64,000 nt of DNA from Candidatus Dojkabacteria bacterium (GTDB lineage Bacteria; Patescibacteriota; Dojkabacteria; JAOAGR01): assembly GCA_026415655.1 (NCBI GenBank), contig JAOAGR010000004.1, positions 43 to 64,042 of the forward strand, written 5' to 3'. The notes beneath the pieces were generated by a model. The model saw nothing but the letters and a program-made list of their open reading frames with translations, had not been told where the DNA came from and searched no databases. A program made the position numbers and the translations under genes. Below are positions 9,445-28,116 of this stretch, in pieces (positions within the stretch are counted from its first letter, which is position 1; every line of letters starts with the position of its first letter).

Positions 9445-9520
9445 TCGAGAGTAGCTCAGCCGGTAGAGCAAGCGGCTGTTAACCGCTGGGTCGTGGGTTC
9501 GAGTCCCACCTCTCGAGCCA
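9445..9520 (+). tRNA. tRNA-Asn (anticodon GTT)
   Basis: Cloverleaf: acceptor TCGAGAG/CTCTCGA (U1-A72), anticodon stem AGCGG/CCGCT with loop CTGTTAA, T-arm GTGGG-TTCGAGT-CCCAC, encoded CCA. Confidence 0.85.
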
Positions 9521-9585
9521 TGTAAATTTTTCGAGCTGTGTTAAATTTATATCAATGTCCATAAAGATTTTTATGTGTTTTTAGT

Positions 9586-10237
9586 TTATATATTTTTAAG
9601 TTGATTTACTCGAAAGTTTTTATTGGTAAAATAAAATGAAGTTTCCTTGATTATTTCTTGATTTAGTTGATAAAGACCGTTTTCAGTAATTCTCTCGAAT
9701 ATTTTTATATCCCACAAATAAATATTAGAATATTCAGTCTCTTTTCTAACCTGCATAATCAAATAATTGTTATCAAATTCAACAAAATATGGGGGTCTTT
9801 TTGTCATTTGATCGAGTTTGTTTAGAGTATGCATATCAAAAATAAAAATACCACTACTTTCTAAATGACTAGAGACACTTTTAAATGTACCCTCCCATCC
9901 ACTCAAATCTAGTACATGATTAATAGAATCATAAAAACAGTAAATAACACCATATCTTGTATTTATAGGAAAATTTGCCATATCCTGATGATAAAAATTT
10001 ATTTTTGGCATTTTTGCCCTTGCCATAGCAAGCATACTTTCCGATATATCTAATCCTTCAACTTCATAATTATCTTTAATACTCTGTAAAATATTTCCAG
10101 TACCACAGGCTATCTCTAAAATTTTTCTTGCATTAGACTTATATTTATCAATATAATGATTCGATATTTTAGTAAAAAATTGATGATTAGATTCTAAACT
10201 ATCATAAAATCTCTAATAAATAGAATATGGGTCATTT
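9586..10237 (-). pseudogene. Class I SAM-dependent methyltransferase interrupted by in-frame TAG after codon 10 (MTKNDPYSIY*RFYDSLE...ILEIACGTGNIL...)
   Basis: Motif I (ILEIACGTG) lies upstream of the track ORF's ATG (10035) in the same frame; only an in-frame TAG at 10205-10207 separates it from an ATG at 10235-10237; no ATG/GTG/TTG between stop and motif I. Confidence 0.55.
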
Positions 10238-10295
10238 TTAGTCATGGATCAGTTATAACATTTGCAAACTTAAAAAACAAAATTGAATTGATCTT

Positions 10296-10690
10296 AATAA
10301 AAAGATAATATTTTATATCATGAATAGTATCCAGTACAAAGTAATAAAAGCATTCCCGATTATAATGTTTGTAATTATTAACATAATCTTAATAACACTA
10401 GTTTCTATACTAGGTTATTATTACTTTACAAATAATCGACAAACAAATAATCAAAACTTAAGTAAGCCCTCCCCTACTACTACTCCTAGTGAAAATGTAA
10501 TCATTGATAATGATCTAGCCGATGAACTATTTAGAGGAAATAATACGCAAACCGATACACCAACGCCTACATCAACAACAACTCCATCACCAACTCAATC
10601 ACCAAGTTCCAGTCCCTCACTTACAGTCACAAATACCACAATAACCAACACTCCACAACGTCAAACACAGTCCCCACTTCTATCGATAAC
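10296..10690 (+). repeat. Direct repeat copy 1 (about 390 bp, ~95% identical to 18243..18627) covering promoter-proximal region and first ~120 codons of a surface protein gene
   Basis: Near-identical nucleotide runs read at both loci (atatcatgaatagtatcca...caacgtcaaacacagtcccc...cacttctatc). Confidence 0.75.
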
Positions 10691-10934
10691 TTTAACTGAT
10701 CAAAACAAAATCAATGAAATTCAAACAATCCATTTTCCCGACGAAGTAAAATGGACGCACATTGAGAAGCTGGTTAAATCAAGAGCCTATTCATTAGGTT
10801 TTAATGATAAATTCAGTTATTATTCGCAATTAAAAGTTACTCAATGTAATACCTGTCTAGATCGATACAGGTCTTTTAATTGGTCCGATCTAGAAGAGAT
10901 GATAAGAGTCGGTATTTTAAAGAAAGCTTTTTAA
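10320..10934 (+). CDS. Membrane-anchored protein with Pro/Thr/Ser-rich linker (paralog A; shares N-terminus with 18256..19533)
   Basis: N-terminal TM helix, TTTPSENV...PTPTSTTTPSPTQSPSS low-complexity linker, unique 90-aa C-terminus. Confidence 0.5.
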   Translation: MNSIQYKVIKAFPIIMFVIINIILITLVSILGYYYFTNNRQTNNQNLSKPSPTTTPSENVIIDNDLADELFRGNNTQTDTPTPTSTTTPSPTQSPSSSPSLTVTNTTITNTPQRQTQSPLLSITLTDQNKINEIQTIHFPDEVKWTHIEKLVKSRAYSLGFNDKFSYYSQLKVTQCNTCLDRYRSFNWSDLEEMIRVGILKKAF

Positions 10935-11148
10935 TAATCAAATCTTGATTTTATTACAGGGCATCTATTATCTGACTCCTCAATATAAGTTTAGATATTA
11001 CTCAAAATAACACTGACTTAATTATTAAACCTATCCTGCAATCTCAACAAATTTAAAATGCTACAATTATGAACTAGCCAGTAAATCCGAGAATATTTCT
11101 GATTATCCTTCTTATAGAGAATAAATCTCATTGATCGTTCTAGAATGA

Positions 11149-11154
11149 TATAAT
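11149..11154 (+). promoter_or_regulatory. Candidate extended -10 element (TGaTATAAT) upstream of mod gene; weak -35 TTGATC 12 nt upstream
   Basis: Sequence tgatataat 19 nt upstream of ATG 11173; spacing to -35 is suboptimal. Confidence 0.25.
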
Positions 11155-11172
11155 GAAAAATATTATTGTTTT

Positions 11173-14148
11173 ATGACAAAAGAGCAAAAATTTTACCAAG
11201 CATTACAAGATGTATTTATCGGCGCAAAGATTGAAGGCACTGGTGGATTTGTTAATTTAATGAGAATAAAATCAAATTACTACAAAAAGATTGAGGAATT
11301 ACTCAAGAAAGATATTGAAAAAGCATTAGAAAGATATTCATCATTCAGAGATGAACTTTTTGATAAACTTTATTCATTTTTCAGTAGATATTTTACAGAA
11401 AGTGGATCAATATACTTCAATTCTACACCATTTCATAACAACATTTATGAAAAAGTTTATACCGATGATAAAGATGTTATTCTCTTCTGGAAAACACAGA
11501 TGCTTTACTATGTAAAAACCGACAGAATATTTAGAAGCTTAGAGATAGAAAGTGATGGGCATAAGTTTTTCTTTGATGTAAGTAATCTTGAACACAAGAA
11601 AGCAAATGAAAAACGAAGTTTGATATATGAATTAAAAGAAGTAAAAGAAGACAAGACTATTATTCTCAATGTTTATTATTCCGAAAAAGGAAGAGTAACA
11701 AAAACAGAAGATATACTAAAAGAATTGAAAAAGAAACATATAAGCCTAACCGAAGAAGAGTTAGAGAAATCATTTAGGATTTTTGAAAAACAAAGCGAAG
11801 TAGATTTTTTTATCAACAAAAACGCAAAAGCATTTTTACAGGAGCAGTTTAAGTTATGGAGTTATCAGTACTTTTGGGAAGGGGCAAAAGAGTGGAGTGT
11901 AGATAGAGTAAACCAGTTACAGATACTAAAAGACATAGCTTTTAAGATTATAGATTTTATCAGTCAGTTTGAAGATGAGCTAGTAAAGGTATGGAACAAA
12001 CCGAAGTTTGTAAAGAATAGTAATTATGTGATAACACTGGATAGGATAAATAACATAGAATTGATTGAAGAAATATTGAAGCATAAAGGTATAGAAGAAC
12101 AGGTAAAAGAATGGAAAGAGTTAGGAATAGTAGACGAAGATTTCAAGATAGATGATATTTTTGACAATTCCCCTTCTATGAAGGGGTGGCAGGCAGAGCC
12201 TGACGGGGTAGTCAGATGGAATGAATTACCTTTTGATCTTGAACTCAAAGAAACAGCCAAGGAACTGAGAAAAGCCGGTAATTTATCCGAGGTTTTATTA
12301 TGGAATCAAATCAAAAATAAAAAATTTTTAGGCTTGGACTTTGATAGACAAAAAATCATAGGAAATTACATTGTTGATTTTTATTGCAAGGATTTGGGGG
12401 TTGTTATTGAGATTGATGGTGCAAGTCATGATGAGAAAGTCGAATATGACAGAAAAAGAGATAAATATTTAGAAAGTTTGGGGTTAAAGGTAATACATAT
12501 TCTTGATACAGATGTAAAGAATAATCTTCAGGGGGTAATTGAGTTTTTAAAACGCGAAATTAAACACCCCGTCCCTTCGGGACACCCCTCTATTAGAGGG
12601 GAATTTAGTCATCTACCGATAGATACAAAATATTTCAAAGATTTAGAACTGGAAATACTTAGTCAATTTGATGATTTAGACAATGCTTTAGATGGATGGT
12701 TAATAAAAAGTGAGAACTATCAGGCTTTAAATACTATACTGCCAAAGTTTAGGGAAAAAATGCAGACGATTTATATAGATCCGCCGTTTAATTTAGATTC
12801 ATCTGATCAGTTTTTGTATAGGACTAACTACAAAGATGCAAACTGGGCAACACTACTTGAAAACAGGATAAGGATAGCTAGAGAATAGCTAAACGAAAAA
12901 GGAAGCATTTTTGTAAGGTGTGATTATAACGGAAACTGGATTGTAAGACCTCTAATGGATGAGATTTTCGGGGGGGAGAATTTTAGGAATGAGATTGTGA
13001 TTACTCGCGGTATGCAAACCAGAAAAGCAGAGAATAGATTATTAAATAAAACAGACTCGTTATTTTTCTATTTCAAGAATTCGGAGAGTGGGATTTTATA
13101 TATTCTTGAAAGAGAAAAAGAACATGTGAAGCACTACCAAGAAACATTAAGAACTCTCAAGAGATTAATTGATGATGAGATTTATAGAGAAATAGAGAAA
13201 AAATTAAATGAATCCCTTTGGATGCCTTTTCTAAGTATGCCAGGGGAACAAAAAACTAATGGGTATAGACAGATTTTCGGAATTAAGTTAAATCCACCTA
13301 AAGGACGGCACTGGGCTTTTTCACAAGAGAATTTAGATATAGCCGTTAAAGAAGGATTAGCGAGATTAAAATGTTTGAATTGCGGAACGATTATTACAGA
13401 AAATAACCAAATAGAAGACGGAAAATGCAGAGATTGTGGCAGTGAATCTTTTCAAGGAGAAATATTAAGCCTATATAACCAAATAAATAACAATTGGACA
13501 GACATCCCAGGATATGAACAAGACCCCGAATTTCCTACTCGCAACTCCGAAATCCTCCTCAAGCGTGTCATAGAATCCACATCCAACGAAGGCGATTTAG
13601 TTATGGATTTCTTTTTAGGTAGTGGTACCACTACAGCCGTAGCCCATAAACTTGGTAGGAAATGGATAGGAACAGAGATGGGAGAACACTTTTATACTGT
13701 AATTTTACCAAGGATGAAAAAAGTTTTAGCTTATGATAAATCAGGAATATCAAAAGAAAAAGATGTAAAAGAAAAGTACAATGAAAAAAATGCAGGCGGG
13801 TTTTTCAAATACTATGAACTTGAACAATATGAAGAAGCATTAAACAACTGTGTATATGAAGACAGTGATATATTCACTTCATCTAACAAATCACCTTATG
13901 AACAGTATGTATTTTTGAAAGATGAAAAGATGCTAAAAGCTTTAGAGATAGATTATCAAAACAATAAAGTAAAAGTAGATTTAGATAAACTTTATGAAAA
14001 TATTGACATAGCAGAAACCTTATCAAATCTCACAGGAAAATGGATAAAGAAAGTAAGAGAAAATGAAGTGGAATTTGAAGATGGCACAATAATAAACACA
14101 GAAGATTTGGATTATAAATTTATTAAGCCGTTGATTTGGTGGGAATAA
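11173..14148 (+). pseudogene. mod: Type III R-M methyltransferase (Mod, beta-class N6-adenine MTase) interrupted by in-frame TAG at 12886-12888; carries a ~360-aa N-terminal extension and an embedded DUF559 endonuclease-like domain
   Basis: ORFs 11173..12888 and 12955..14148 are in the same frame and the 66 nt between them translate without stop (LNEKGSIFVRCDYNGNWIV); DPPFN motif IV (~12790), FLGSGTT motif I (~13610), order IV-TRD-I; DUF559 signature LLWNQIKNKKFLGLDFDRQKIIGNYIVDFYC...IEIDGASHD at ~12280-12570. Confidence 0.75.
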
Positions 14149-14154
14149 TTTTTT

Positions 14155-15141
14155 ATGAAAAAAGAAAAGTTTAAAAAAGGTGAAATTATTATTTACAAGT
14201 CCAAAGAAGGCCCCAAACTTGAAGTTAGATTTTCTGCTGAAACTGTTTGGCTAAGACAGGAAGAAATAGCAAAGTTATTTGGCAAAGAAAGATCAGTAAT
14301 TACCAAGCATATCAAAAAAATTTTTACCGATAACGAAGTAGATAAAAAAAGCAATGTGCAATTTTTGCACATTCCAAACTCTGATAAGCCAGTTGCATTT
14401 TATAGTCTTGATGTAATTTTAGCAGTAGGTTATCGCACCAATTCTTCAAGAGCCATCCAGTTTAGAAAATGGGCTACTCAGATCTTAAAGAATTATTTGT
14501 TGAGAGGATACGCTCTAGATCAAAAAAAGTTACTCCACACACAAAACGCCTTAAAAGATTTGCAAGAGACTATCACTCTACTACAAGAAAAGTCAAGAGG
14601 CGAATTGCTTGCTGGACAACAGCAAGAAATTTTAAATCTGCTCTCAAACTATGCTAAAACTCTTAGTTTACTCGAACAATACGATAAAGAAAAAATTAAT
14701 CTCATAAAAAAAGCAAAAGACAAGTTTATTTTACAATACGATGAAGTAAAATCAATAATAGAAAATATAAAGAAAGAACTTATTGCCAAAAAAGAAGCAG
14801 GCTATTTATTTGGAAGAGAAAATAATGAAAATCTCAAAGCCATTTTAGGAAATATCTACCAGACATTTGGTGGTAAAGAACTCTATCCAAGTTTAGAAGA
14901 AAAAGCAGCACATCTGTTATATTTTATTATTAAAGATCATCCTTTTGTCGATGGTAATAAAAGAATAGCTTCTTTTTTGTTTATTTATTTTTTAGATAAA
15001 AACAATTATCTGTATAAGCAAAATGGTGAGAGGAAAATCAATGATAATGCTTTGACAACTCTGGCTCTTTTAATTGCAGTAAGCAATTCAAGTGAAAAAG
15101 AAAAAATAATAAAAATTATTACAAATCTAGTGGGTTTATGA
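14155..15141 (+). CDS. RhuM-family N-terminal domain fused to Fic/Doc domain (HPFVDGNKR motif)
   Basis: RhuM signature (EVRFSAETVWLRQEEIAKLFGKERSVITKHIKKIF...VGYRTNSSRAIQFRKWATQILK) and Doc-type motif HPFVDGNKRIASFLF; stop overlaps res start (ATGA). Confidence 0.75.
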   Translation: MKKEKFKKGEIIIYKSKEGPKLEVRFSAETVWLRQEEIAKLFGKERSVITKHIKKIFTDNEVDKKSNVQFLHIPNSDKPVAFYSLDVILAVGYRTNSSRAIQFRKWATQILKNYLLRGYALDQKKLLHTQNALKDLQETITLLQEKSRGELLAGQQQEILNLLSNYAKTLSLLEQYDKEKINLIKKAKDKFILQYDEVKSIIENIKKELIAKKEAGYLFGRENNENLKAILGNIYQTFGGKELYPSLEEKAAHLLYFIIKDHPFVDGNKRIASFLFIYFLDKNNYLYKQNGERKINDNALTTLALLIAVSNSSEKEKIIKIITNLVGL

Positions 15142-18104
15142 AACACTACTTACAAAACATAGTATCAAACCTTGATATTAACAATATTCCAGCGGACTGG
15201 TCGGATATTGATTTTGAAATATTTTCTAAAGATAAAAAACTTTTTGACTATCAACAAAAAGCATTGGAGCATGCGCTGAAATCCTTGTATTTATTTTATC
15301 AGGAAGACAATGGAGATAAATCTAAATTTTATAACAGATTTATTAATAACGGATTAACAGAAGATTTATCTTACAATGTTAAAAAGGAAAGCAAAACCAT
15401 AAAATACCTTTTAGAATACGATAAAGATTATCCTGTAGATAATGAAAAAATTTCATTTAAGCACCTTATAAACCGAATGTCTTTCTGGATGGCAACAGGT
15501 AGTGGTAAAACTCTTGTTATTGTTAAGCTTATCGAATTGCTTGCGTATCTTATCAATCAAAATAAAATACCTAAAAAAAATATTTTATTTTTGACATACA
15601 GAGAAGATCTAATTGAACAATTTAAAAATCATCTTGAAGAGTTTAATTCAGTTAATTCTGATAGCTTTATTAGTCTTATAAATCTGAAAGACTATTCTTC
15701 AAGAAAGCAAAATCCAACATTAAGTTTTGGCAATAGTATTGATATTTTTTATTATAGAAGTGATTTAATTTCAGATGAACAAAAAGATAAAATTGTAAAT
15801 TTTAAAAATTACGAAAATAACGGTAACTGGTATATTATCCTGGATGAAGCACACAAAGGCGACAGAGAAGATAGCAAAAGGCAGATATTCTATTCAATTT
15901 TAAGTAGGAATGGATTTTTGTTTAATTTTTCAGCGACATTCACAGATGAAAGAGATTTTGTAACCTGTGTTTATAATTTCAATCTATCAAAGTTTATCGA
16001 AGAAGGCTATGGTAAACATATTTACATTTCCAAACAAAGTGTAAATGCTTTAGAACAGAGAAATACAATAATTGATAACGAAAAACAGAAGATACTACTT
16101 AAATTATTTATTCTTCAATCTGCGATAAACAAACAATTTGAGGAAATACGAAAAGTAATTGGAAATCTTTATCATAAACCACTGTTGCTTACACTTGTAA
16201 ATTCTGTAAATACTGAAGATTCCGATCTTGAGTTATTTTTTAAGGAGATAGAAAAAATTGCAAGCAACAATATTGATAAAAGTATTTTTGAAGAAGCCAA
16301 AAACAATCTTTTACAGGAATTAGAAAGTAAAGATGCAAAATATGAATTTGAAGACATCCGCATTGACACTTCCATTCGCAATTCTATCAAACAAATACAA
16401 CCATCAGATTTGTTAAGGTATATTCTAAACTCCGCAAAACAGGGAAAAATTGAAGTAATAAAACTACCTTCAAACAAACAGGAATTGATTTTCAAACTTG
16501 CTACATCTGACCAACCATTCGCTTTGATGAAGATAGGCGATATAACCGAGTGGATAAAAAATAAACTCTCTCATTACGAAATAATAGAACGTTTTGAAAA
16601 CGAAAGTATTTTCAAAAATATCAATACAAATGAAGACATCAATATATTGATGGGGTCACGGGCTTTTTATGAGGGCTGGGATAGTAATAGGCCAAATCTT
16701 ATTTTGTTTATAAATATTGGAAAAGGAACGGATGCAAAAAAATTTGTACTTCAATCCATAGGTCGTGGAGTCAGAATTGAACCTTTGCCAAATAAAAGAA
16801 AGAGGTTGGTAAATCTATACAACAATAATGAAGTAGATGAAAGTCTTTATAATATAGTAAAAAATAATATTTTAGGACTTGAGACTTTATTTGTTTTTGG
16901 GACAAAAGCAGAAAACTTAAAAGAAGTTATTGAAACACTTAAACAGGAAAAAACAGAAGTTTTACTTGGTGATTTGTTTGAGATTAATCCAGATGTGTTA
17001 GATAAAGAACTGTTAATTCCACAATATAAAAAATCAAATAATTTGATTATAGAAGAAAAAGAAGTGATACAGTTTCCAATTAATGAAAATGATTTTGACG
17101 AAGTTTCAGACTATTTTAATTATATAGGCGATAAAGTTGCATTATGTAAATATGATTGCAATATCAAAGTTTTATCAAAGCTTAAAGAAGCATTTAATGG
17201 AAAAAAACAAAATTACTTTTTAATAAGTAATGATGAGTCAAAAGTTGGAAAACCAGAGGTGTTACTTTCGTTGATATTTAAACACTTTTCAAATGTTACA
17301 GAGGAATTTTCTAATTTCAAAAAGTTAAAAGAAGAGATCATCCACTTTAAGAGAATTCAAATTACACAAGACAAACTAAATTCTTTAAGAGAAAAGATTG
17401 AAAAGGTTAAGAGAGCAAAAGATAAAGATAAAATTGAAAAAGAACTTGATGAAAAATTTGACAAAGGTGAAGTTTCAAAAGAACAATACAAGCAACAAAT
17501 TAAAGAAATCGAATCAAATATAGTCAAAGAAGCAGAAACTCAATATAACACAAACGAGAAAATTAAAATAAAACTTTTACAAAACCATTATTACATACCT
17601 CTGGCTTTATCTGAAAGCGAAACAGCTGATTACATACAACATGTAATTAAACATAAAGGTGAAATTGATTTTCTAAACGAACTTGAAAACTACTTAAATC
17701 AAAACAACAATTTATTTAAACAATTTGACTGGTGGTATTTTTCTAAAATTGATGAAACACTGGATAACGTTTACATTCCTTATTACAATCCGAAAACAAA
17801 TAGAATAGATAGATTTAAGCCTGATTTTATCTTCTGGTTAAAAAAGGATAATAACTATACAATCTTATTTGTTGATCCAAAAGGAACAGAGCATACTGAT
17901 GGATATAGAAAAATTGATGGTTTTTCAAGGATTTTTGAGGAAAAAGTCAATGGACACGAACAAAATAGAAATTTTGCATATAACGGATTCACATTAACTG
18001 TAAAACTATTATTAAAAACTAGATCAGGGATAGGAAGTGTTTTGAATAAGTACAAAAAATACTGGTTTGATAACTTTGTTGATTTTTCGAATAAAATTAA
18101 GTAA
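15138..18104 (+). CDS. res: Type III restriction enzyme Res subunit (SF2 helicase + PD-(D/E)xK nuclease)
   Basis: Walker A MATGSGKT, DEAH box ILDEAHKG, motif VI QSIGRGVRI, C-terminal KPDF...VDPKG nuclease motif; 988 aa. Confidence 0.8.
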   Translation: MKHYLQNIVSNLDINNIPADWSDIDFEIFSKDKKLFDYQQKALEHALKSLYLFYQEDNGDKSKFYNRFINNGLTEDLSYNVKKESKTIKYLLEYDKDYPVDNEKISFKHLINRMSFWMATGSGKTLVIVKLIELLAYLINQNKIPKKNILFLTYREDLIEQFKNHLEEFNSVNSDSFISLINLKDYSSRKQNPTLSFGNSIDIFYYRSDLISDEQKDKIVNFKNYENNGNWYIILDEAHKGDREDSKRQIFYSILSRNGFLFNFSATFTDERDFVTCVYNFNLSKFIEEGYGKHIYISKQSVNALEQRNTIIDNEKQKILLKLFILQSAINKQFEEIRKVIGNLYHKPLLLTLVNSVNTEDSDLELFFKEIEKIASNNIDKSIFEEAKNNLLQELESKDAKYEFEDIRIDTSIRNSIKQIQPSDLLRYILNSAKQGKIEVIKLPSNKQELIFKLATSDQPFALMKIGDITEWIKNKLSHYEIIERFENESIFKNINTNEDINILMGSRAFYEGWDSNRPNLILFINIGKGTDAKKFVLQSIGRGVRIEPLPNKRKRLVNLYNNNEVDESLYNIVKNNILGLETLFVFGTKAENLKEVIETLKQEKTEVLLGDLFEINPDVLDKELLIPQYKKSNNLIIEEKEVIQFPINENDFDEVSDYFNYIGDKVALCKYDCNIKVLSKLKEAFNGKKQNYFLISNDESKVGKPEVLLSLIFKHFSNVTEEFSNFKKLKEEIIHFKRIQITQDKLNSLREKIEKVKRAKDKDKIEKELDEKFDKGEVSKEQYKQQIKEIESNIVKEAETQYNTNEKIKIKLLQNHYYIPLALSESETADYIQHVIKHKGEIDFLNELENYLNQNNNLFKQFDWWYFSKIDETLDNVYIPYYNPKTNRIDRFKPDFIFWLKKDNNYTILFVDPKGTEHTDGYRKIDGFSRIFEEKVNGHEQNRNFAYNGFTLTVKLLLKTRSGIGSVLNKYKKYWFDNFVDFSNKIK

Positions 18105-18242
18105 TAAAATTTTAGAAAATAAAAAAATGAGGTAACACTTAGAGTCTAGAATATTAAAATTCATCTGAATAGATGATTTTTCATAAAACTATAATTTGTT
18201 TATTAAAATACAACAAATATTGAATTAACCGTAATAAAAACA

Positions 18243-18627
18243 TAATATTTATATCATGAATAGTATCCAATACAAAGTAATAAAAGCATTCCCGATTATG
18301 ATGTTTGTAATTATTAACATAATCTTAATAACACTTGTTTCTATACTAGGTTATTATTACTTTACAAATAATCGACAAACAAATAATCAAAACTTAAGTA
18401 AGCCCTCCCTTACTACTACTCCTAGTGAAAATGTAATCATTGATAATGATCTAGTCGATGAATTATTTAGAGAAAATAGTACGCAAACCGATACACCAAC
18501 GCCTACATCAACAACATCTCCATCACCAACTCAATCACCAAGTTCCGGTCCCTCACCTACTGTCACAAATACCACAATAACCAGCACTCCACAACGTCAA
18601 ACACAGTCCCCCACTTCTATCCCGACA
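18243..18627 (+). repeat. Direct repeat copy 2 (partner of 10296..10690)
   Basis: See copy 1. Confidence 0.75.
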
Positions 18628-19533
18628 ACCACACAAAGAATACCGAATACAACTATTACAAATACTCCTTCAACAAACCCATTTAGTGTATCTGATTTTG
18701 TATCTATCTATGATGATTATACCGGTATTGAAATAAGCAGAATAAAATATTGGAAAGAGGATTATGAAGGACTAGTTGACTTACCTGCATTTTATAAGAG
18801 ATTTGTAGATGAAAATGGGAAAATCGTTGCCGAATATGAACTTTTACCATACGCCAATAATACTGTACCGACCCCAACACAATTGCTTTCTCAATACACT
18901 ATTTTAAATAGGCCTACCAAACAATATATCAGCCAAGATGAATATGTCATAATCGAAATAAGATTTTATCCGAATGAATTTGTCAACAATAATACAGTGA
19001 CTAGATTGAAGTTTTACTATCTAGATAATAATGAAAAAGTCAGGAAATTTGCTAACGAAACAGAAAAACAATATTTGATACAACTATCAAATGCTATTTC
19101 CAACTCTGTCAAATATACTACTATCACTACTATTACGCTAAATAATAAATACACATTTTATTTTCCAATATACAAGAATTTTTCTATAAACGGTAATAGC
19201 AATAGAATCATTGTTTATGAAAAAGATAACTTATCTGTACCCAAATTAACAATTAAACCATATCTAGATGATTTTATATCAACGTGTTACGATCTTAAAA
19301 ATGTTGATGGAGTAGACTATAACTCCAACTTTGAGATCATCGTCAAGGAAGGAAGCTTAAAGAATACAGAAGGTTGTTCTAGCGCCACAAAAAGTGTAAT
19401 CATATTTGAAATTAAAAATCATTTGTATATAACTATATTCTCTACTGATTCTAACTATGGCTATATGGGGGCTGTGGGTGATGGAAACATATTATTAGTT
19501 GATTACGTACTTGACTCTTTGAAAATCTTATAA
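18256..19533 (+). CDS. Membrane-anchored PT-rich surface protein (paralog B, 425 aa, different C-terminal domain)
   Basis: N-terminal 115 aa nearly identical to 10320 ORF, then unique ~300-aa domain. Confidence 0.5.
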   Translation: MNSIQYKVIKAFPIMMFVIINIILITLVSILGYYYFTNNRQTNNQNLSKPSLTTTPSENVIIDNDLVDELFRENSTQTDTPTPTSTTSPSPTQSPSSGPSPTVTNTTITSTPQRQTQSPTSIPTTTQRIPNTTITNTPSTNPFSVSDFVSIYDDYTGIEISRIKYWKEDYEGLVDLPAFYKRFVDENGKIVAEYELLPYANNTVPTPTQLLSQYTILNRPTKQYISQDEYVIIEIRFYPNEFVNNNTVTRLKFYYLDNNEKVRKFANETEKQYLIQLSNAISNSVKYTTITTITLNNKYTFYFPIYKNFSINGNSNRIIVYEKDNLSVPKLTIKPYLDDFISTCYDLKNVDGVDYNSNFEIIVKEGSLKNTEGCSSATKSVIIFEIKNHLYITIFSTDSNYGYMGAVGDGNILLVDYVLDSLKIL

Positions 19534-19561: not shown

Positions 19562-20662
19562 ATGATAGTAGAAAATCAAGTTGAGCTAGAAAAAACACAA
19601 ACTAATCAGGCCGAAACTAATCCAGCTGATACCAATTTGAATAATAATTCAAAGAATAATCTTCAAAAAAATACCAATGTAATATTAATTATATCTGCTG
19701 CAACTTTAATATTTCTTATTATCTTTTTTACTTTATTCTTAACAAATAAACAAAAGCAAAACGCTTATGGTTCAAATACAGAGTCAGAAACTACATCCGA
19801 AGTGAGAAATCCCGAAACTGATGATTCGTCCAATAATACTCAAGTTGAAAATTCAAATAGCGATACAGAAGAAAACTCCAATCAATCCGATCAGTCTAAT
19901 AATCAAAATACTCAAGTAAGAACACCTAGACCCCAAAATGACTTTTTATTTTATAGAGACAATATAAACGGACGTGTTCTGGGACATCCAAAAGATTGGA
20001 CAGTAAATGTATCTAATGATTATAAAGTAACATCTATTTCAAAGGATCAAAATAAAGTTATAGTTCAAAGAAAAAGAGAAACCCAAGTCCTTGCTAGTGT
20101 ACGTAGTGCAAATCCTGTAAAAACTATTCACTCTCCTGATTCTACAATACAGATATATTCAAATGGAAATAAATACACAAGCATCGTAAAGATACGAAAC
20201 GACCAGAAAATCAAAAATCCCTACGTTACAACTTCAGAATATGAGGCTCTATCAAACCAACAGACCAGCGATAGCATAAATTTACTTTCTGACATATCCA
20301 CTTCATTATCAAATGAACTATCAACCTACAATATAACTTACGGAAATAGAACCTATACCTTGAGATATCCCGCAAATACATGGGAACTTTTTAAAGAAAA
20401 CGACGAAATAAAACTTAGAAATAAAAACAATTTAGATATAACATTAAGTGTAAGAATAAAATCAAAATATAGCGGTGGAGGATATTGCTACGAAATATTA
20501 GAAAAGGAATCAAACACTATAAATAGTAGTATCAATTTTAAAGTTTTTCAAGGTAAAAAATCAGAAGATGGTCCTTGTGTAGAGATGTTATCAGCAGATG
20601 CCAAAAAGTATTTGATATATGCAACCGTAGACTTAACAAATGAAACAGTTTTAGAAATATAA
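19562..20662 (+). CDS. Membrane-anchored S/T/N-rich protein of unknown function
   Basis: N-terminal TM, low-complexity acidic/Ser-rich linker, C-terminal domain with GGGYCYE...C motif; ends TAA. Confidence 0.4.
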   Translation: MIVENQVELEKTQTNQAETNPADTNLNNNSKNNLQKNTNVILIISAATLIFLIIFFTLFLTNKQKQNAYGSNTESETTSEVRNPETDDSSNNTQVENSNSDTEENSNQSDQSNNQNTQVRTPRPQNDFLFYRDNINGRVLGHPKDWTVNVSNDYKVTSISKDQNKVIVQRKRETQVLASVRSANPVKTIHSPDSTIQIYSNGNKYTSIVKIRNDQKIKNPYVTTSEYEALSNQQTSDSINLLSDISTSLSNELSTYNITYGNRTYTLRYPANTWELFKENDEIKLRNKNNLDITLSVRIKSKYSGGGYCYEILEKESNTINSSINFKVFQGKKSEDGPCVEMLSADAKKYLIYATVDLTNETVLEI

Positions 20663-21205
20663 GGAGCAACAAATAATCCAAATTTAAATGAGATTCAGGA
20701 AGCTCTCATTTTTGATATTATATGTAATTTTGAGTTTGAAAAATATGTTGAATTAGAATTAGTTTCACCTCATCAAGCAACAGGTAAACCCGAATATTCG
20801 ATTTATTATCCTTCTAATAAATGGGAATACACTTTCAACCAAGGTCTATACAGATTTACGAGGAAAGATAATCCATCTTTTTCTTTCACCATGGAACCAG
20901 GATTCGTCCACACGGGAGGATATTATTGTTATGAATTCGATACAGCTAATCAAATAGAGAAATCACTCAACGGATTTACGACAATTTATACAAAAGCCCA
21001 ACGAATTAATCAACCGACAGAATTGTGTGATCAAAATTCTATTAGTTCATCAGAAAAATATATGTTTTTAATCGCTATATATGTAAGTGAGTTTGAACTT
21101 TATAAATTAACCTATTTTTCAGACAATAATAACTTGGATGAAGCTTCACAGATAATTTATGGCGAAATATTATCTAATTTTACTATAGATTTAGAAAGAA
21201 ATTAA
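20663..21205 (+). CDS. Second copy of the C-terminal domain of the preceding gene, in frame directly after its TAA (no in-frame ATG until 20891)
   Basis: Translation from 20663 in the same frame is open and repeats the motif order (YPSNKWEYTF...GGYYCYEF...C...KYMFLIAIY) of residues ~240-366 of the upstream ORF. Confidence 0.3.
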   Translation, partial: GATNNPNLNEIQEALIFDIICNFEFEKYVELELVSPHQATGKPEYSIYYPSNKWEYTFNQGLYRFTRKDNPSFSFTMEPGFVHTGGYYCYEFDTANQIEKSLNGFTTIYTKAQRINQPTELCDQNSISSSEKYMFLIAIYVSEFELYKLTYFSDNNNLDEASQIIYGEILSNFTIDLERN

Positions 21206-22910: not shown

Positions 22911-24536
22911 TTATAATTCTTGCAATTCCTTACAAACAAAATAATTGTCTTTTATATAGGATAAAACAAAGTAGATAAAAGCACATATAGCAATGAATAA
23001 CATAATACTTATTTGTTCTAATGATAAAATATTAAACGATTCTAAAAATTTCGTATTTTCATAAGAATAATTATCAAAAAAAACATAAAGTTGATTCAGA
23101 AAAAATAAAATATGAATTATAGAAATAATTAAAACTATAAAGGCGAATCTGAATTTATCTAACAATCTAGAATTTTTATATAAAGCAAAGGAAAATATAG
23201 TCATTGGTATTAAGGCATAAATCAAATATCGCGAATGCATTTTTGTAGATGTATACAAGAAAAATATTAAATAGACAAAGTAGATTAACATAATTAAATA
23301 CTTTCTCTTGGGATGTGGTGATTTGACCAGTTTATAGACAACATATGCCAATGGTAAAAAGATGATCGCATTGATAACATAAAATAGAATTTTTACATTT
23401 ACACCCAAAATAAAAGCATCAGAAGTAGGCATTTCCGAGATAAATCCAAATATAAGCCAAAAATTGGCAGCATACATAGAAACAACATCATCTTTAGTAA
23501 GAAAACCTAATATGTTATTTGCATAAAGTGTTAAATTTATATTTAAAAAAATATTCAATATACTGATTATCCCAATAAATAAACCTGAGGAAAATTGTAT
23601 AGATCCGTTTTTTAAATTATATAAATAAATGATCAAAACTATACTTAAAAGGTAAACGATCAAAGACAAAGATTGCAGATTTAAATAATTAAAGAGTACC
23701 ATTAAACCTATTAAGAAAATAAACAGTATCCATATAAATATGTTCTTTTTAATCAATATTTGATTAAAGTCCCTATTTAATATGTAAAAAATAATTGGAA
23801 GATAGATAAGAACATGCACTTTAAAATTCAACAAAACGGCAAATACAATGCCCCAAAGAAAATACTCCCAATCATTCATTTCGCCTAAAATTCTATTAAA
23901 TAAAGTAAGAATAACTAGCATTATCAAAACATCTAATTGCCCCCACATAACACTAATGCTCCATATTGAGGGGAGCACAAAAAACAATGAGGATATAAAG
24001 ATTTTTAATGGTATTGATTTTATGCCTATCCTATTTAGTAATTTATAAACTACTAAAATCAATAACAAATCGCTAATTCAATTGATAAACTTAAGTGTAA
24101 GTACGAATCCTAACTGTGGCTCAAGGTTAAATAAATTAGTAATTGGTTTAGATAAAATGTATACCAAGTAAATATAACCGACACTAGCTGGTAGATAATC
24201 AAAATAATCTATTTCATAATTTTTAGACAAATCTTCAAAATATTGCCAAAACGGTATATATCCATTTTCATCTATGATTTTGGCCCAATTATACATCGTA
24301 TAGACTGTGTCAAAATAAAAACCATAGTTATAAATAGTCTTTATTCTAAAATATAATCCTAAAACAAAGATCAAAATAACACAGAAATAAAATAAAAATT
24401 TTTTACTAAAAATATACTTTATCACAATCGATATTATAAAATACTTGTAAATATACAAATGAAAAATAAAAAAATAGCGAATTATAAATGCTCTAATTGT
24501 GGCGCTAGATATATAGCATGGCAAGGTCAGTGTCAA
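22911..24536 (-). pseudogene. GT-C type integral-membrane glycosyltransferase-like protein split by in-frame TGA (24078-24080)
   Basis: ORFs 24078..24536 and 22911..24068 share a frame with only 3 sense codons (ISD) between them; combined ~540 aa polytopic protein. Confidence 0.45.
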
Positions 24537-27171: not shown

Positions 27172-28116
27172 ATGAGCAATCAAAGTTTCTACAATAAAAG
27201 AAGAGAAGGAACAAAAACCAGTGCTTTTGGCACGCCGGGCAGAATTAACCATGACTCGTCAAAATTTTATAACAGCAAACTTTATGAGGGATTGAATAAT
27301 GGAAAAAATGTTGAGTATGTGGAAAATCAAATTGATCCTCAAAATATAAATAAAGTTTTTTGTAAAAGTAGCGAAGCTATGTCAGAACTTCCGGACAATA
27401 GTGTTCACTTAATGGTTACTTCGCCGCCCTACAATGTGGGTAAAGAATATGACGAAAACTTATCTCTCAAAGAATATAGGGATTTATTAAAACGAGTATT
27501 CAAAGAGACGTATAGAGTTTTGGTTCCTGGCGGTAGGGCATGTATAAATGTTGCTAATCTCGGGAGAAAACCCTATTTACCCCTCCACAGCTATATCATT
27601 GAGGATATGCATAATATTGGTTTTTTAATGAGGGGTGAGATTCTTTGGGATAAAGGAAGTAGCGCTAGCCCTTCTACTGCTTGGGGAAGTTACCTAAAAG
27701 CAAATAATCCGGTATTGCGAGATATTCATGAGTATATTCTTGTTTTTTGCAAAGATACATTCACCAGATTAAACCCACACAAGAGGAAAAGCACTATCTC
27801 AAAAGAAGAATTTTTGGAATTTACAAAAAGCATTTGGAAATTCGCCGCAGAGCGAGCCTCAAAAGTAGGACACCCCGCACCTTTTCCCATTGAACTACCT
27901 TATCGCTTAATTCAACTTTACACTTTTGAGGGCGATGTCGTTTTAGATCCATTTGTTGGAAGCGGAACAACTTGCATCGCTGCGTTAAAAACCAACAGAA
28001 AATATGTTGCTTATGACATTGATAAAAAGTACTGCGATTTGGCAGAACGGAGAATAAAGCAATTTTTACAGAAACAAACAACACTTTTTTCAAAAGAATT
28101 TGCCGCCAAAGAGTAA
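27172..28116 (+). CDS. DNA methyltransferase, beta-class N4-cytosine/N6-adenine (motif IV TSPPYN before motif I DPFVGSGTT)
   Basis: SPPY catalytic motif at aa ~85, FxGxG SAM motif near C-terminus; typical of PvuII/BamHI-like type II MTases. Confidence 0.8.
   Translation: MSNQSFYNKRREGTKTSAFGTPGRINHDSSKFYNSKLYEGLNNGKNVEYVENQIDPQNINKVFCKSSEAMSELPDNSVHLMVTSPPYNVGKEYDENLSLKEYRDLLKRVFKETYRVLVPGGRACINVANLGRKPYLPLHSYIIEDMHNIGFLMRGEILWDKGSSASPSTAWGSYLKANNPVLRDIHEYILVFCKDTFTRLNPHKRKSTISKEEFLEFTKSIWKFAAERASKVGHPAPFPIELPYRLIQLYTFEGDVVLDPFVGSGTTCIAALKTNRKYVAYDIDKKYCDLAERRIKQFLQKQTTLFSKEFAAKE

Follow-up and report, generated by a model that had tools for sequence, protein, structure and literature searches.

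A type III restriction-modification unit between long direct repeats in a Candidatus Dojkabacteria chromosome: a probable insertion with long target duplication

How did a type III restriction-modification (R-M) unit come to lie between two nearly identical copies of the 5′ end of a gene? The question is raised by a locus in a 64-kb piece of the chromosome of a Candidatus Dojkabacteria bacterium (a candidate-phyla-radiation organism represented by a metagenome-assembled genome), and this whole stretch of DNA will be denoted here as the window. An initial annotation had proposed that the 5′ ends of two paralogous surface-protein genes exactly bracket the R-M cassette. Comparison with contigs from a related species (L002 and L005), from a sister strain (L007) and from independent assemblies (L001 and L003) leads to a different view: a horizontally transferred R-M unit is likely to have settled in a variable region close to a tRNA-Asn gene and, in doing so, to have duplicated a long stretch of its target, which would account for the repeats. 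As a rearrangement the event is instructive, but there is little out of the ordinary about it.

The pair of repeats, first reported as about 95% identical at 10296-10690 and 18243-18627, is real, with 390 of 414 aligned positions identical (94.2%), but the left limits first given cut off the outermost 24-35 nt, and the right ones overshoot the end by some 6 nt. A repeat search combined with alignment to the outgroups, which set the ends, locates copy 1 (413 bp, plus strand) at 10272-10684, comprising the native upstream region of gene B and B codons 1 to ~121, and copy 2 (414 bp, plus strand) at 18208-18621, comprising the duplicated promoter region and B codons 1-122. The search returned a core of 300 nt (10312-10611 and 18248-18547, spacing 7936) that is 97% identical, and no other repeat of 60 nt or longer in the 64 kb, while identity drops to 41-48% directly outside the repeat ends. 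As had been described, each copy carries upstream DNA (~48 nt), the ATG, a strongly hydrophobic segment (19-residue Kyte-Doolittle maximum at residue 14, with a value of 2.8-2.9) and a linker rich in P, T and S, and the C-terminal tails that follow, of 83 and 303 residues, are indeed unrelated. Promoter-like hexamers (TTGAAT-17-TAATAT, 10283-10311, plus strand, ending 8 nt before the ATG) can be read in copy 1 and are retained in copy 2 (18220-18248), in L005 and, as TAGTAT, in L002, with a variable spacer; they are suggested tentatively, since they fall below the scan threshold (9/12), and the promoter scan gave no score above chance.

Repeats of this size are known to break short-read assemblies, and here the ENA contigs stop at 18325 and resume at 18557, so that a metagenome-assembled genome might have duplicated or mis-joined a single copy of the B 5′ end. 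However, both junctions and the copy-specific alleles recur across independent samples and assemblers, in L001 (methyltransferase-copy 1-A-mod), L003 (res-copy 2-B) and L007 (methyltransferase through res into copy 2), and the two copies differ at 24 positions. The repeat pair is therefore not a misassembly, and an artefact of this kind is extremely improbable.

The key to the origin of the repeats lies in the related species, at ~78% nucleotide identity to the window, in which the site is empty. In L002 and L005 the order is tRNA-Asn, gene X, a pseudogene for a SAM-dependent methyltransferase (MT) and a single gene B, with no R-M genes, and the single-copy sequence (L002 1828-2239; L005 1980-2385) aligns both to 10270-10676 and to 18207 onwards. 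In the window, gene B (18256-19533, plus strand) encodes an intact membrane-anchored protein of 425 residues, whose orthologues of 432 (L002; 64% identity by BLASTP) and 433 residues (L005) are found immediately downstream of MT. B is the target gene of the duplication and, because the duplicated segment covers its core promoter and start codon, it remains intact and presumably expressible.

The left anchor of the variable region is tRNA-Asn(GTT) (9445-9520, plus strand, ARAGORN), beyond which three lineages differ: L002 and L005 have gene X at this place, L007 has a block of 2.2 kb that includes orf275 and orf288, and the window has no more than filler (~110 bp). No integrase domain (Pfam) was found, and neither the window nor L007 repeats the tRNA end, features that would mark a tRNA-linked integrative island. 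MT (9586-10245, minus strand, Methyltransf_25 match) is the native neighbour of B; it carries an in-frame TAA at codon 11 in the window, is intact with 220 residues in L007 and is degraded in L002 and L005. The upstream flank of copy 1 runs unbroken into MT, matching the empty site, and L007 retains, ahead of MT, a decayed 3′ remnant of the native X, which indicates that the order X-MT-B was ancestral in the lineage of the window too. The present order is tRNA-Asn, MT, copy 1 fused to the tail of X (ORF A), the R-M unit, and copy 2 with the whole of B; ~760 bp of the ancestral MT region are missing between the X fragment and B in the window, and no MT remnant is left next to the R-M unit.

The fusion at copy 1 decides the nature of ORF A. 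This 204-residue ORF (10320-10934, plus strand) consists of B residues 1-119, two frameshifted residues and the 83 C-terminal residues from gene X, which in the related species encodes 329 residues, lacks any hydrophobic segment and lies intact beside tRNA-Asn. Residues 242-329 of the L002 X protein match 10668-10931 in X's own frame (tblastn, 60% amino acid identity over 88 residues), and the X fragment, its last ~250 bp through 7 nt past the stop codon (10685-10941, plus strand), is recognizable at the nucleotide level (74% identity to L002 839-1076, 73% to L005 984-1221), the homology to the X flank stopping immediately after TAATAATCA. Since its tail is the 3′ end of a neighbour gene that is intact in the related species, A is a rearrangement chimera and not a paralogue of B. 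The reading frame depends on a run of four C (10672-10675, plus strand), one C shorter than the run of five in copy 2 (18608-18612), which sets the B head in frame with the X tail; with five C at the fusion, a TGA would appear five codons beyond the junction. The run has four C in L001, L006 and L007 and five in L003 and L004.

It could still be argued that the surface proteins A and B are true paralogues with a common N-terminal module under selection, and that the repeats serve the programmed switching of C-termini that had been proposed for them. Such a reading could invoke the promoter-like hexamers, anchor and linker common to both, the intact state of ORF A in all strains examined, and a dN/dS of ~0.2 (70 codons) for the A tail against the L002 X, a value that points to purifying selection on the tail relative to that gene. 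However, the related species has a single copy, the A tail comes from the end of a neighbouring gene whose product is not a membrane protein, upstream non-coding DNA was duplicated as well, and the two copies show a dN/dS of 0.68 (9 non-synonymous and 4 synonymous changes). Nor does the locus display the multiple cassettes together with a recombinase or inverted sites that characterize shufflons and silent-cassette systems: there are just two direct copies, no recombinase and no silent cassettes, and a HMMER search of 1.84 billion representative proteins retrieved, as relatives of the A tail, only A itself, the L005 X fragment and one weak match, so that the tail is without relatives outside the lineage. 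The idea of paralogues with programmed switching is thus very improbable and largely refuted.

Contrary to the first description, the cassette does not lie exactly between the repeats, because the X fragment intervenes on the left. The acquired unit (mod-fic-res, 7.3 kb, 10942-18207, plus strand), which has no counterpart in L002 or L005, extends from 7 nt past the X stop codon to ~48 nt before the B ATG, and 7.5 kb separate copy 1 from copy 2. All three of its genes are on the plus strand. The mod gene (11173-14148; N6_N4_Mtase and DUF559 matches) contains an inserted DUF559 domain of Vsr-like endonuclease fold (12244-12558; PF04480, E 1.8e-29, residues 358-462), an insertion shared by no more than 4 of the 80 related loci. 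The slot between mod and res, of variable content, is occupied here by a RhuM/Fic-DOC gene (14155-15141, domain match) with homologues in 14 of the 80 loci, and res (15138-18104; ResIII, DEAD and SWI2_SNF2 matches) encodes an intact helicase-domain restriction subunit of 988 residues. The relatives of Res, at no more than 71% amino acid identity, are scattered across Spirochaetota, Bacteroidota, Hydrogenedentes, archaea and others, with none in Dojkabacteria, a distribution foreign to the host that identifies the unit as horizontally acquired. Pfam matches in the insert comprise DUF559, the methyltransferase, RhuM/Fic and ResIII/helicase, and include no integrase or transposase. Although Res is intact, mod carries an in-frame TAG (12886-12888), shared by L007, at a codon that is TGG in six of eight relatives and GTT or ATT in the other two; a type III system requires an intact Mod for methylation as well as for restriction, and this one is thus probably dead by now, having decayed through this change of Trp to stop.

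The edges of the unit carry an imperfect inverted repeat of 41 nt, with arms at 10929-10969 (left) and 18168-18208 (right, abutting copy 2) that are complementary at 31 of 41 positions, a score reached by none of 5000 shuffles and by 1 of 4932 AT-rich real window pairs (~2e-4). No second copy of these inverted repeats occurs in the genome, and the empty site lacks them, at least as regards the inner 28 nt; on the left, the outermost 13 nt of the arm overlap native X sequence. In this regard, the unit resembles the transposon-like R-M units with imperfect inverted repeats reported from Xanthomonas oryzae (60/65) and Neisseria gonorrhoeae (26/26) (PMC2853133), in that the arms lie exactly at both ends and exceed chance. 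However, the arms are shorter and weaker here and there is no 8-bp target-site duplication; indeed, the sequences flanking the inverted repeats, GAAAGCTT and TACAACAA, share no direct repeat.

A closer precedent is provided by the insertion of R-M units with long target duplication, first recognized in Helicobacter pylori and generalized to types I-IV by Furuta, Abe and Kobayashi in 2010 (PMC2853133), who listed type III cases with repeats of 100-200 bp and pointed out that the repeats often span the translation start, leaving the target gene intact. The locus studied here shares the defining features of that class: R and M homologues (mod with N6_N4_Mtase, res with ResIII/DEAD) between direct repeats longer than 30 bp (413/414 bp, 94%), an insert below 20 kb (7.5 kb between the repeats) with no other mobile-element genes, and an empty site in a related genome whose single copy aligns to both repeats. 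Likewise, the repeats far exceed the duplications made by site-specific recombinases or transposases, and the repeat spans the translation start, so that the target gene survives and a fusion ORF is left at the other copy. Three aspects set it apart, namely the host, a member of the candidate phyla radiation; a repeat interior that appears to have been homogenized by conversion; and, between copy 1 and the unit, 250 bp that belong to another native gene, X, so that the insertion is not clean (a requirement added by us and not taken from PMC2853133). In addition, the insertion is in part a substitution, because the ~760-bp MT region of the ancestral locus was replaced.

The existence of homology-facilitated illegitimate recombination, which has been described during natural transformation in Acinetobacter and Streptococcus, offers a way to integrate these observations. 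Starting from the ancestral order tRNA-Asn, X, MT (on the opposite strand), B promoter and B, the R-M unit would first have replaced, in a related chromosome, the MT region between the X stop codon and the B promoter, yielding X-RM-B. A fragment X3′-RM-B5′ would then have entered a chromosome still carrying MT, where its right end would have recombined homologously within B and its left end would have been joined illegitimately to B codon 122 at a patch of microhomology (TCTATC / GA.AAC), producing the duplication in one step. The upstream copy would thereby have become ORF A, in which the 1-bp deletion in the C run aligned the membrane anchor and linker with the conserved C-terminal module of X; later, gene conversion would have homogenized the interiors of the copies while the R-M system decayed. 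The likeness, one of mechanism only, resides in the combination of a homologous anchor (B) with an illegitimate joint at microhomology, which links B codon 122 to X codon ~247. In the published class the R-M unit lies directly between the repeats; to account for the X fragment here, one must assume a special donor or else one further event at the least, and the predicted intermediate X-RM-B was absent from all collections searched, protein cluster look-ups included.

The same B5′::X3′ junction and the same final order could also be reached in a single strain if duplication had come first. An unequal exchange of illegitimate type, linking B codon 122 with X codon ~247, would have duplicated the segment X3′-MT-promoter-B5′ in tandem, the R-M unit would later have replaced the second MT copy, and the first X would have been lost, in the window by deletion and in L007 to the block that carries orf275 and orf288. 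The persistence in L007 of a native X remnant in addition to the X fragment inside A fits this scheme, as does the dispensability of a second MT copy, given that MT is a pseudogene in several lineages. However, it requires three or four events, and there is no MT remnant beside the unit. Moreover, a single date predicts equal divergence, while the interiors of the copies are 96% identical and the X fragment in A is 67% identical to the native remnant in L007 (a figure derived from 81 bp of decaying sequence), unless conversion rescued the interior alone. Derived changes, 10 of the 13 polarizable ones lying in copy 2 and 3 in copy 1, hint at a different origin, albeit not significantly (p = 0.09). 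All in all, this sequence of events deserves to be kept in mind but is unlikely, and insertion with target duplication, one of the possibilities raised at the outset, is favored.

A further issue is whether the copies still communicate with each other. In L007, copy 1 carries copy 2 alleles at nine consecutive sites (10474-10625) with copy 1 alleles on both sides, in what is a metagenome assembly at 4x coverage where one of the two switch points coincides with a position at which the k=55 graph could change path. In the window, the copies are less alike in the upstream part (38/48, 79%) than in the coding part (352/366, 96%; Fisher p = 1e-4), as if the far more diverged edges were old and the interior young, even though between species the upstream stretch shows conservation no weaker than that of the coding part. 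These patterns suggest that copies 1 and 2 exchange sequence and that gene conversion, also anticipated by the initial annotation, probably keeps their interiors alike.

Such exchange raises the possibility that the repeats are in current use, with homologous recombination between the copies either multiplying the segment repeat-X3′-mod-fic-res in tandem or releasing it as a circle. Indeed, the mosaic alleles of L007 indicate that the copies do recombine, and contig L006 (Logan, SRR27730024, 2572 bp) bears the exact junction of a tandem copy or circle: the 3′ end of res, the upstream flank of copy 2 and then copy 1 alleles, the X fragment and the 5′ end of mod. A 'virus-like life cycle' has been proposed for R-M units between long direct repeats (PMC2853133), and that article reports direct experimental support for amplification through such repeats in another system (its reference 84). 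The geometry is the same as here, and L006 has the junction that a tandem copy would create; here, however, mod is inactivated and L006 is possibly an assembly chimera. In fact, L006, of low coverage, holds copy 2 alleles at 18270 and 18300 and changes copy at the first point that the k=31 graph permits, precisely where the sister-sample contigs L008-L010 end (18330), so it may be a product of the de Bruijn graph. The B-side contig of the same sample, L014, begins only at 18767, so that low coverage had probably eliminated the competing branch. Furthermore, recorded proteins and contigs include no deletion product through the repeats, copy 1 alleles are absent from the three members of the 90% cluster of B, all contigs to the right of copy 2 begin within B or later, and the mod pseudogene leaves no selfish drive for such activity. 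Of the proposal that the repeats might delete or invert the cassette, inversion can be discarded because direct repeats cannot invert the intervening DNA, whereas deletion, like amplification, is mechanistically possible, with L006 as the sole hint. Overall, current use of the repeats is rather doubtful. A bolder version, in which the 413-bp repeats are a working part of a mobile R-M unit, L006 is a real tandem or circular form, conversion keeps the repeats proficient for recombination and the frame-restoring 1-bp deletion reflects selection for a new membrane-anchored protein, is more doubtful still; if true, it would supply evidence from natural populations for the amplification or release step of the 'virus-like life cycle'.

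Insertion with long target duplication was already described between 2000 and 2010 for proteobacteria, cyanobacteria and actinobacteria, and the present case opens no new question. It does show in detail, thanks to an empty site and to several states found among strains, how an R-M cassette may enter the very small genomes of the candidate phyla radiation, which has proceeded here with neither integrases nor transposases. It also illustrates that the target gene can survive the very event that gives rise to a chimeric membrane-protein ORF and to repeats that probably still exchange sequence, and it serves as a warning for annotation, in that 'paralogous surface proteins' sharing their heads can be by-products of an insertion.

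The direct repeats that the initial annotation had described are genuine, and their content and location had been judged correctly to within a few tens of bases. A repeat search of the window returned a 300-nt core (10312-10611 versus 18248-18547; 97% identity, spacing 7936) as part of its sole long repeat, and alignment with the copies in other assemblies and with the outgroup set the ends of copy 1 (c1) at 10272-10684 and those of copy 2 (c2) at 18208-18621. The two copies are identical in 390 of 414 columns, and just beyond their ends identity falls to 41-48% on both sides. Ten differences precede the ATG, in the 48 nt at the start of the repeat; the 366 coding nt hold 13 substitutions and one 1-nt indel (a C4 versus a C5 run). 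Each copy comprises about 48 nt of upstream DNA, the start codon, a strongly hydrophobic segment (19-aa Kyte-Doolittle maximum of 2.8-2.9, at residue 14) and a P/T/S-rich linker. The proteins of the locus are deposited as MCX8034958 to MCX8034963 of a Candidatus Dojkabacteria MAG, and both repeat junctions, with their copy-specific alleles, were recovered in independent contigs that are 99.1-100% identical and stem from the same strain or species: L001 runs from the methyltransferase gene through c1 and gene A into mod, L003 covers res, c2, gene B and beyond, L007 (ENA NODE_72) extends from far upstream through c1 and the entire restriction-modification (R-M) unit into c2, and L004 and L011 begin within c2.

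Upstream of the two genes that start in the repeats, A (10320-10934) and B (18256-19533), promoter-like TTGAAT-17-TAATAT hexamers end 7-8 nt before the ATG (10283-10319 and 18220-18255). The hexamers are kept between species, the spacer varies, and no Shine-Dalgarno sequence is visible before either ATG; such closeness to the start codon, together with the lack of a visible Shine-Dalgarno, suggests that both transcripts are leaderless or nearly so. The promoter call is based solely on the conservation of the hexamers across species, promoter and terminator scans having given no excess over shuffled expectation.

The two genes had been taken for paralogous surface-protein genes whose C-termini might be switched, and neither reading held. 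The tail of A matches that of gene X, found beside tRNA-Asn in the related-species contigs L002 and L005. The final 238 nt of X match window positions 10703-10940 with 73-74% identity, and its residues 242-329 match the translation of 10668-10931 with 60% protein identity, in the frame of A. From this match, A is a chimera of a B head and an X tail, made of residues 1-119 of B, two shifted-frame residues encoded by B-derived nucleotides, and the last 83 residues of X. With the C4 run of c1 (10672-10675) the X tail is read in its native frame, whereas the C5 run of c2 (18608-18612) would lead to a stop five codons beyond the joint; every same-species contig has C4 in c1 and C5 in c2. The joint itself lies within a patch of partial similarity (B TCTATCCCGACAAC versus A TCTATCGATAAC). 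The X-derived tail looks like constrained coding sequence, with a dN/dS of about 0.2 against L002 and L005 over 70 codons, a figure in which dS is near saturation and the post-fusion period is not separable.

X has no hydrophobic segment of its own (maximum 0.59), and no Pfam family was found in X, A, B or in orf275 and orf288, two ORFs of L007. A word-indexed search with full-length X gave no match, and an exhaustive HMMER search with the A tail matched only A itself, the X fragment of L005 and, weakly, a repeated motif in a 5144-aa protein; X is thus a lineage-restricted orphan. It is also separate from the R-M cassette, since X, A and B had no matches in 80 related R-M loci (the best 80 of 181). 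The start of the C-terminal module of X (10713-10790, residues ~132-157 of A) reads IQTIHFPDEVKWTHIEKL, which is weakly similar to the motif IERVTFADGTIWTHADL that is repeated more than ten times in that 5144-aa protein, P0013 (HMMER E = 1.4e-4). The motif resembles the haemolysin-type calcium-binding-related repeats known from large secreted adhesins.

The arrangement that preceded the R-M unit can be read from the related species. The sole non-identical relative of B among 5.8 billion proteins was P0002, encoded on L002, with a near-twin, P0008, on L005; no relatives of B were found in 185,579 species-representative genomes or in the JGI metagenomes, and besides one NCBI MAG and one ENA assembly the lineage is recorded only in a few Logan contigs. 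The species of L002 and L005, with about 78% nucleotide identity to the window over 7.7 kb, shows the order tRNA-Asn, X (329 aa in L002, broken up in L005), MT (a methyltransferase gene, here degraded and on the opposite strand), B, and then the genes found downstream in the window. No R-M genes are present at the locus in either contig, and the repeated sequence is single-copy, aligning to c1 as well as to c2.

The order X-MT-B is ancestral in the lineage of the window too, as L007 retains an X remnant ahead of MT. In this contig tRNA-Asn is followed by a 2.2-kb block with orf275 and orf288, past which come a decayed remnant of the final ~100 nt of X, an X-MT spacer 81% identical to that of L002, and an intact MT of 220 aa. 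In the window, everything down to the 3' end of MT has been swapped for ~110 nt of filler, and MT carries an in-frame TAA and a replaced 3' end; in L002 and L005 it is badly degraded. Judging from these comparisons, the tRNA-Asn flank (window 9521-10245; L007 7103-9845; L002 64-1800) is a turnover hotspot. The flank has no integrase, and no att-like repeat of the tRNA end was found on either side of the L007 block. Across the three lineages it holds X, the 2.2-kb block of two orphan ORFs (275 and 288 aa) or the ~110-nt filler. Downstream of B (window 19562-21205), a 366-aa membrane-anchored protein and a 104-aa ORF correspond to remnants of 74 and 47 aa in the related species (L002 3200-4860), and the whole neighbourhood of anchored orphan proteins turns over fast. 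Farther on, a minus-strand gene at 22911-24536 forms a single ORF of 504-505 aa in L011, L012 and L002 but two ORFs in the window (385 + 152 aa) and in L003 (215 + 302 aa), which may reflect a mutational hotspot, a phase-variable tract or low-coverage consensus errors.

The edges of the R-M unit (10942-18207) were placed by similarity to native sequence. Similarity to the X flank ends at 10941, 7 nt past the stop codon, and similarity to the region upstream of B restarts at ~18208, about 48 nt before the ATG. Exactly at these edges lie the arms of the best inverted repeat of the region (10929-10969 and 18168-18208; 31 of 41 positions complementary), a score reached by none of 5000 shuffles and by one of 4932 equally AT-rich real window pairs. 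In the left arm, the outermost 13 nt belong to native X sequence, and no short direct duplication flanking the arms was seen on reading the flanks. The ancestral stretch of ~760 bp from X to the B promoter (X-MT spacer, MT and distal upstream region) is missing beside the unit, which has thus replaced it. A stretch upstream of c2 that might have been left over from the 5' end of MT was rejected, the alignment being unconvincing beyond ~18190. Compared with related R-M loci and with the rest of the window, the non-coding flanks of the unit gave chance-level matches only, and so no support from other genomes for its ends.

The unit itself consists of mod (11173-14148), a RhuM/Fic gene (14155-15141) and res (15138-18104). 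The latter two are intact ORFs, and mod is broken by an in-frame TAG (12886-12888) where six of eight relatives have TGG (Trp) and the remaining two GTT or ATT. As the identical TAG recurs in a second strain, in L007 (12567-12569), the type III system is probably inactive. A G7 run (12971-12977) lies 85 nt downstream of this codon. Mod also carries an inserted DUF559 (Vsr-like endonuclease) domain (12244-12558) between its N-terminal region and methyltransferase motif IV. A scan of the 185,579 species genomes gave 181 Res relatives, and among the best 80 of these, all of at most 71% identity, are members of Spirochaetota, Bacteroidota, Hydrogenedentes, Patescibacteria and several archaeal groups, and none from Dojkabacteria. 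In these 80 loci the mod-res backbone is conserved and the slot between the two genes is variable, holding Fic in 14; the DUF559 insert occurs in 4. With this distribution, mod-fic-res is a promiscuous cassette that moves horizontally. Nine kb downstream, near a small HTH gene listed in the gene table of L011, a second, stand-alone N6_N4 DNA methyltransferase gene (27172-28116; 314 aa) could be either an orphan methylase or what is left of a further R-M unit.

Every route to the present locus would require one illegitimate joint, of B codon 122 to X codon ~247, and the substitution of the R-M unit for the MT region. In the route preferred here, the unit would first replace MT in a related chromosome, giving X-RM-B, and a fragment spanning the X 3' end, the R-M unit and the B 5' end would then recombine into an MT-bearing chromosome, anchored by homology in B and joined illegitimately at its other end, so that the long target duplication would arise in a single step. 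Alternatively, a tandem duplication of X3'-MT-promoter-B5' would have come first, and the unit would have replaced the second MT later. Three observations, none of them decisive, lean towards the former, or failing that towards c2 and the X fragment in A being old or foreign in origin. First, the two copies share 79% identity over the initial 48 nt against 96% over the remainder (p = 1e-4), and between species this stretch is no less conserved than the coding part. Second, the X fragment of A shares only 67% identity, over 81 nt, with the native X remnant in L007, whereas each of the two is 74-81% identical to the outgroup. Third, at the 13 coding substitutions the outgroup matches c1 at 10 and c2 at 3 (p = 0.09). 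The predicted intermediate was found for neither route.

The initial annotation had also proposed that the repeats are a recombination substrate, and here gene conversion is plausible, deletion or amplification being unproven. The c1 copy of L007 carries c1 alleles at 10334, 10364 and 10400, c2 alleles at the next nine sites (10474-10625; eight of the nine derived relative to the outgroup), and c1 alleles again at 10648 and in the C4 run. The pattern resembles what gene conversion would leave on copying 152-248 nt of c2 into c1, and such a tract would account for a repeat that looks young inside and old at its edges. Two points call for caution: coverage of the contig is 4x, and its left switch falls in a 74-nt difference-free interval, the one place at which a k=55 graph might swap paths. 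At the right switch 23 nt separate the differences, so that a path change is impossible at k=33 or k=55. A second contig, L006 (2572 nt, SRR27730024), matches res with 100% identity as far as 18202, continues with the c2 upstream flank and c2 alleles at 18270 and 18300, and then passes to c1 alleles, followed by the X fragment and the beginning of mod. A tandem or circle formed by unequal exchange or excision would have such a junction. However, L006 switches copy at the first interval longer than 31 nt, the contigs of three sister samples end exactly at that switch (18330), and the B-side contig of SRR27730024 begins only at 18767, so that a low-coverage graph chimera is at least as likely. 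The excised form that had been suggested as a check did not turn up: c1 alleles are absent from all three members of the 90% cluster of B, and the contigs with the gene downstream of B all include res-c2-B or begin within or after B.

The reading of insertion with target duplication, in turn, proved right, given the empty site with a single copy, and the locus appears to belong to an already known class. Furuta, Abe and Kobayashi (2010, PMC2853133) defined 'R-M insertion with long target duplication', with type III examples among others, by four features: inserted R and M genes, an insert below 20 kb without another mobile element, repeats longer than 30 bp, and a related genome whose empty site aligns with the repeats. 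The present locus has all four. These authors also noted that repeats spanning a translation start leave the target intact, with a gene fusion at the other copy, that some R-M units are bounded by imperfect inverted repeats, and, as a hypothesis, that the long repeats serve R-M amplification and release. It seems rather improbable that such amplification or excision is ongoing here together with a selected chimeric membrane protein. The locus differs from the described class in that it includes a piece of another native gene, X, in that the event was in part a substitution, in its apparent concerted evolution of the repeats, and in that its host is a bacterium of the candidate phyla radiation.
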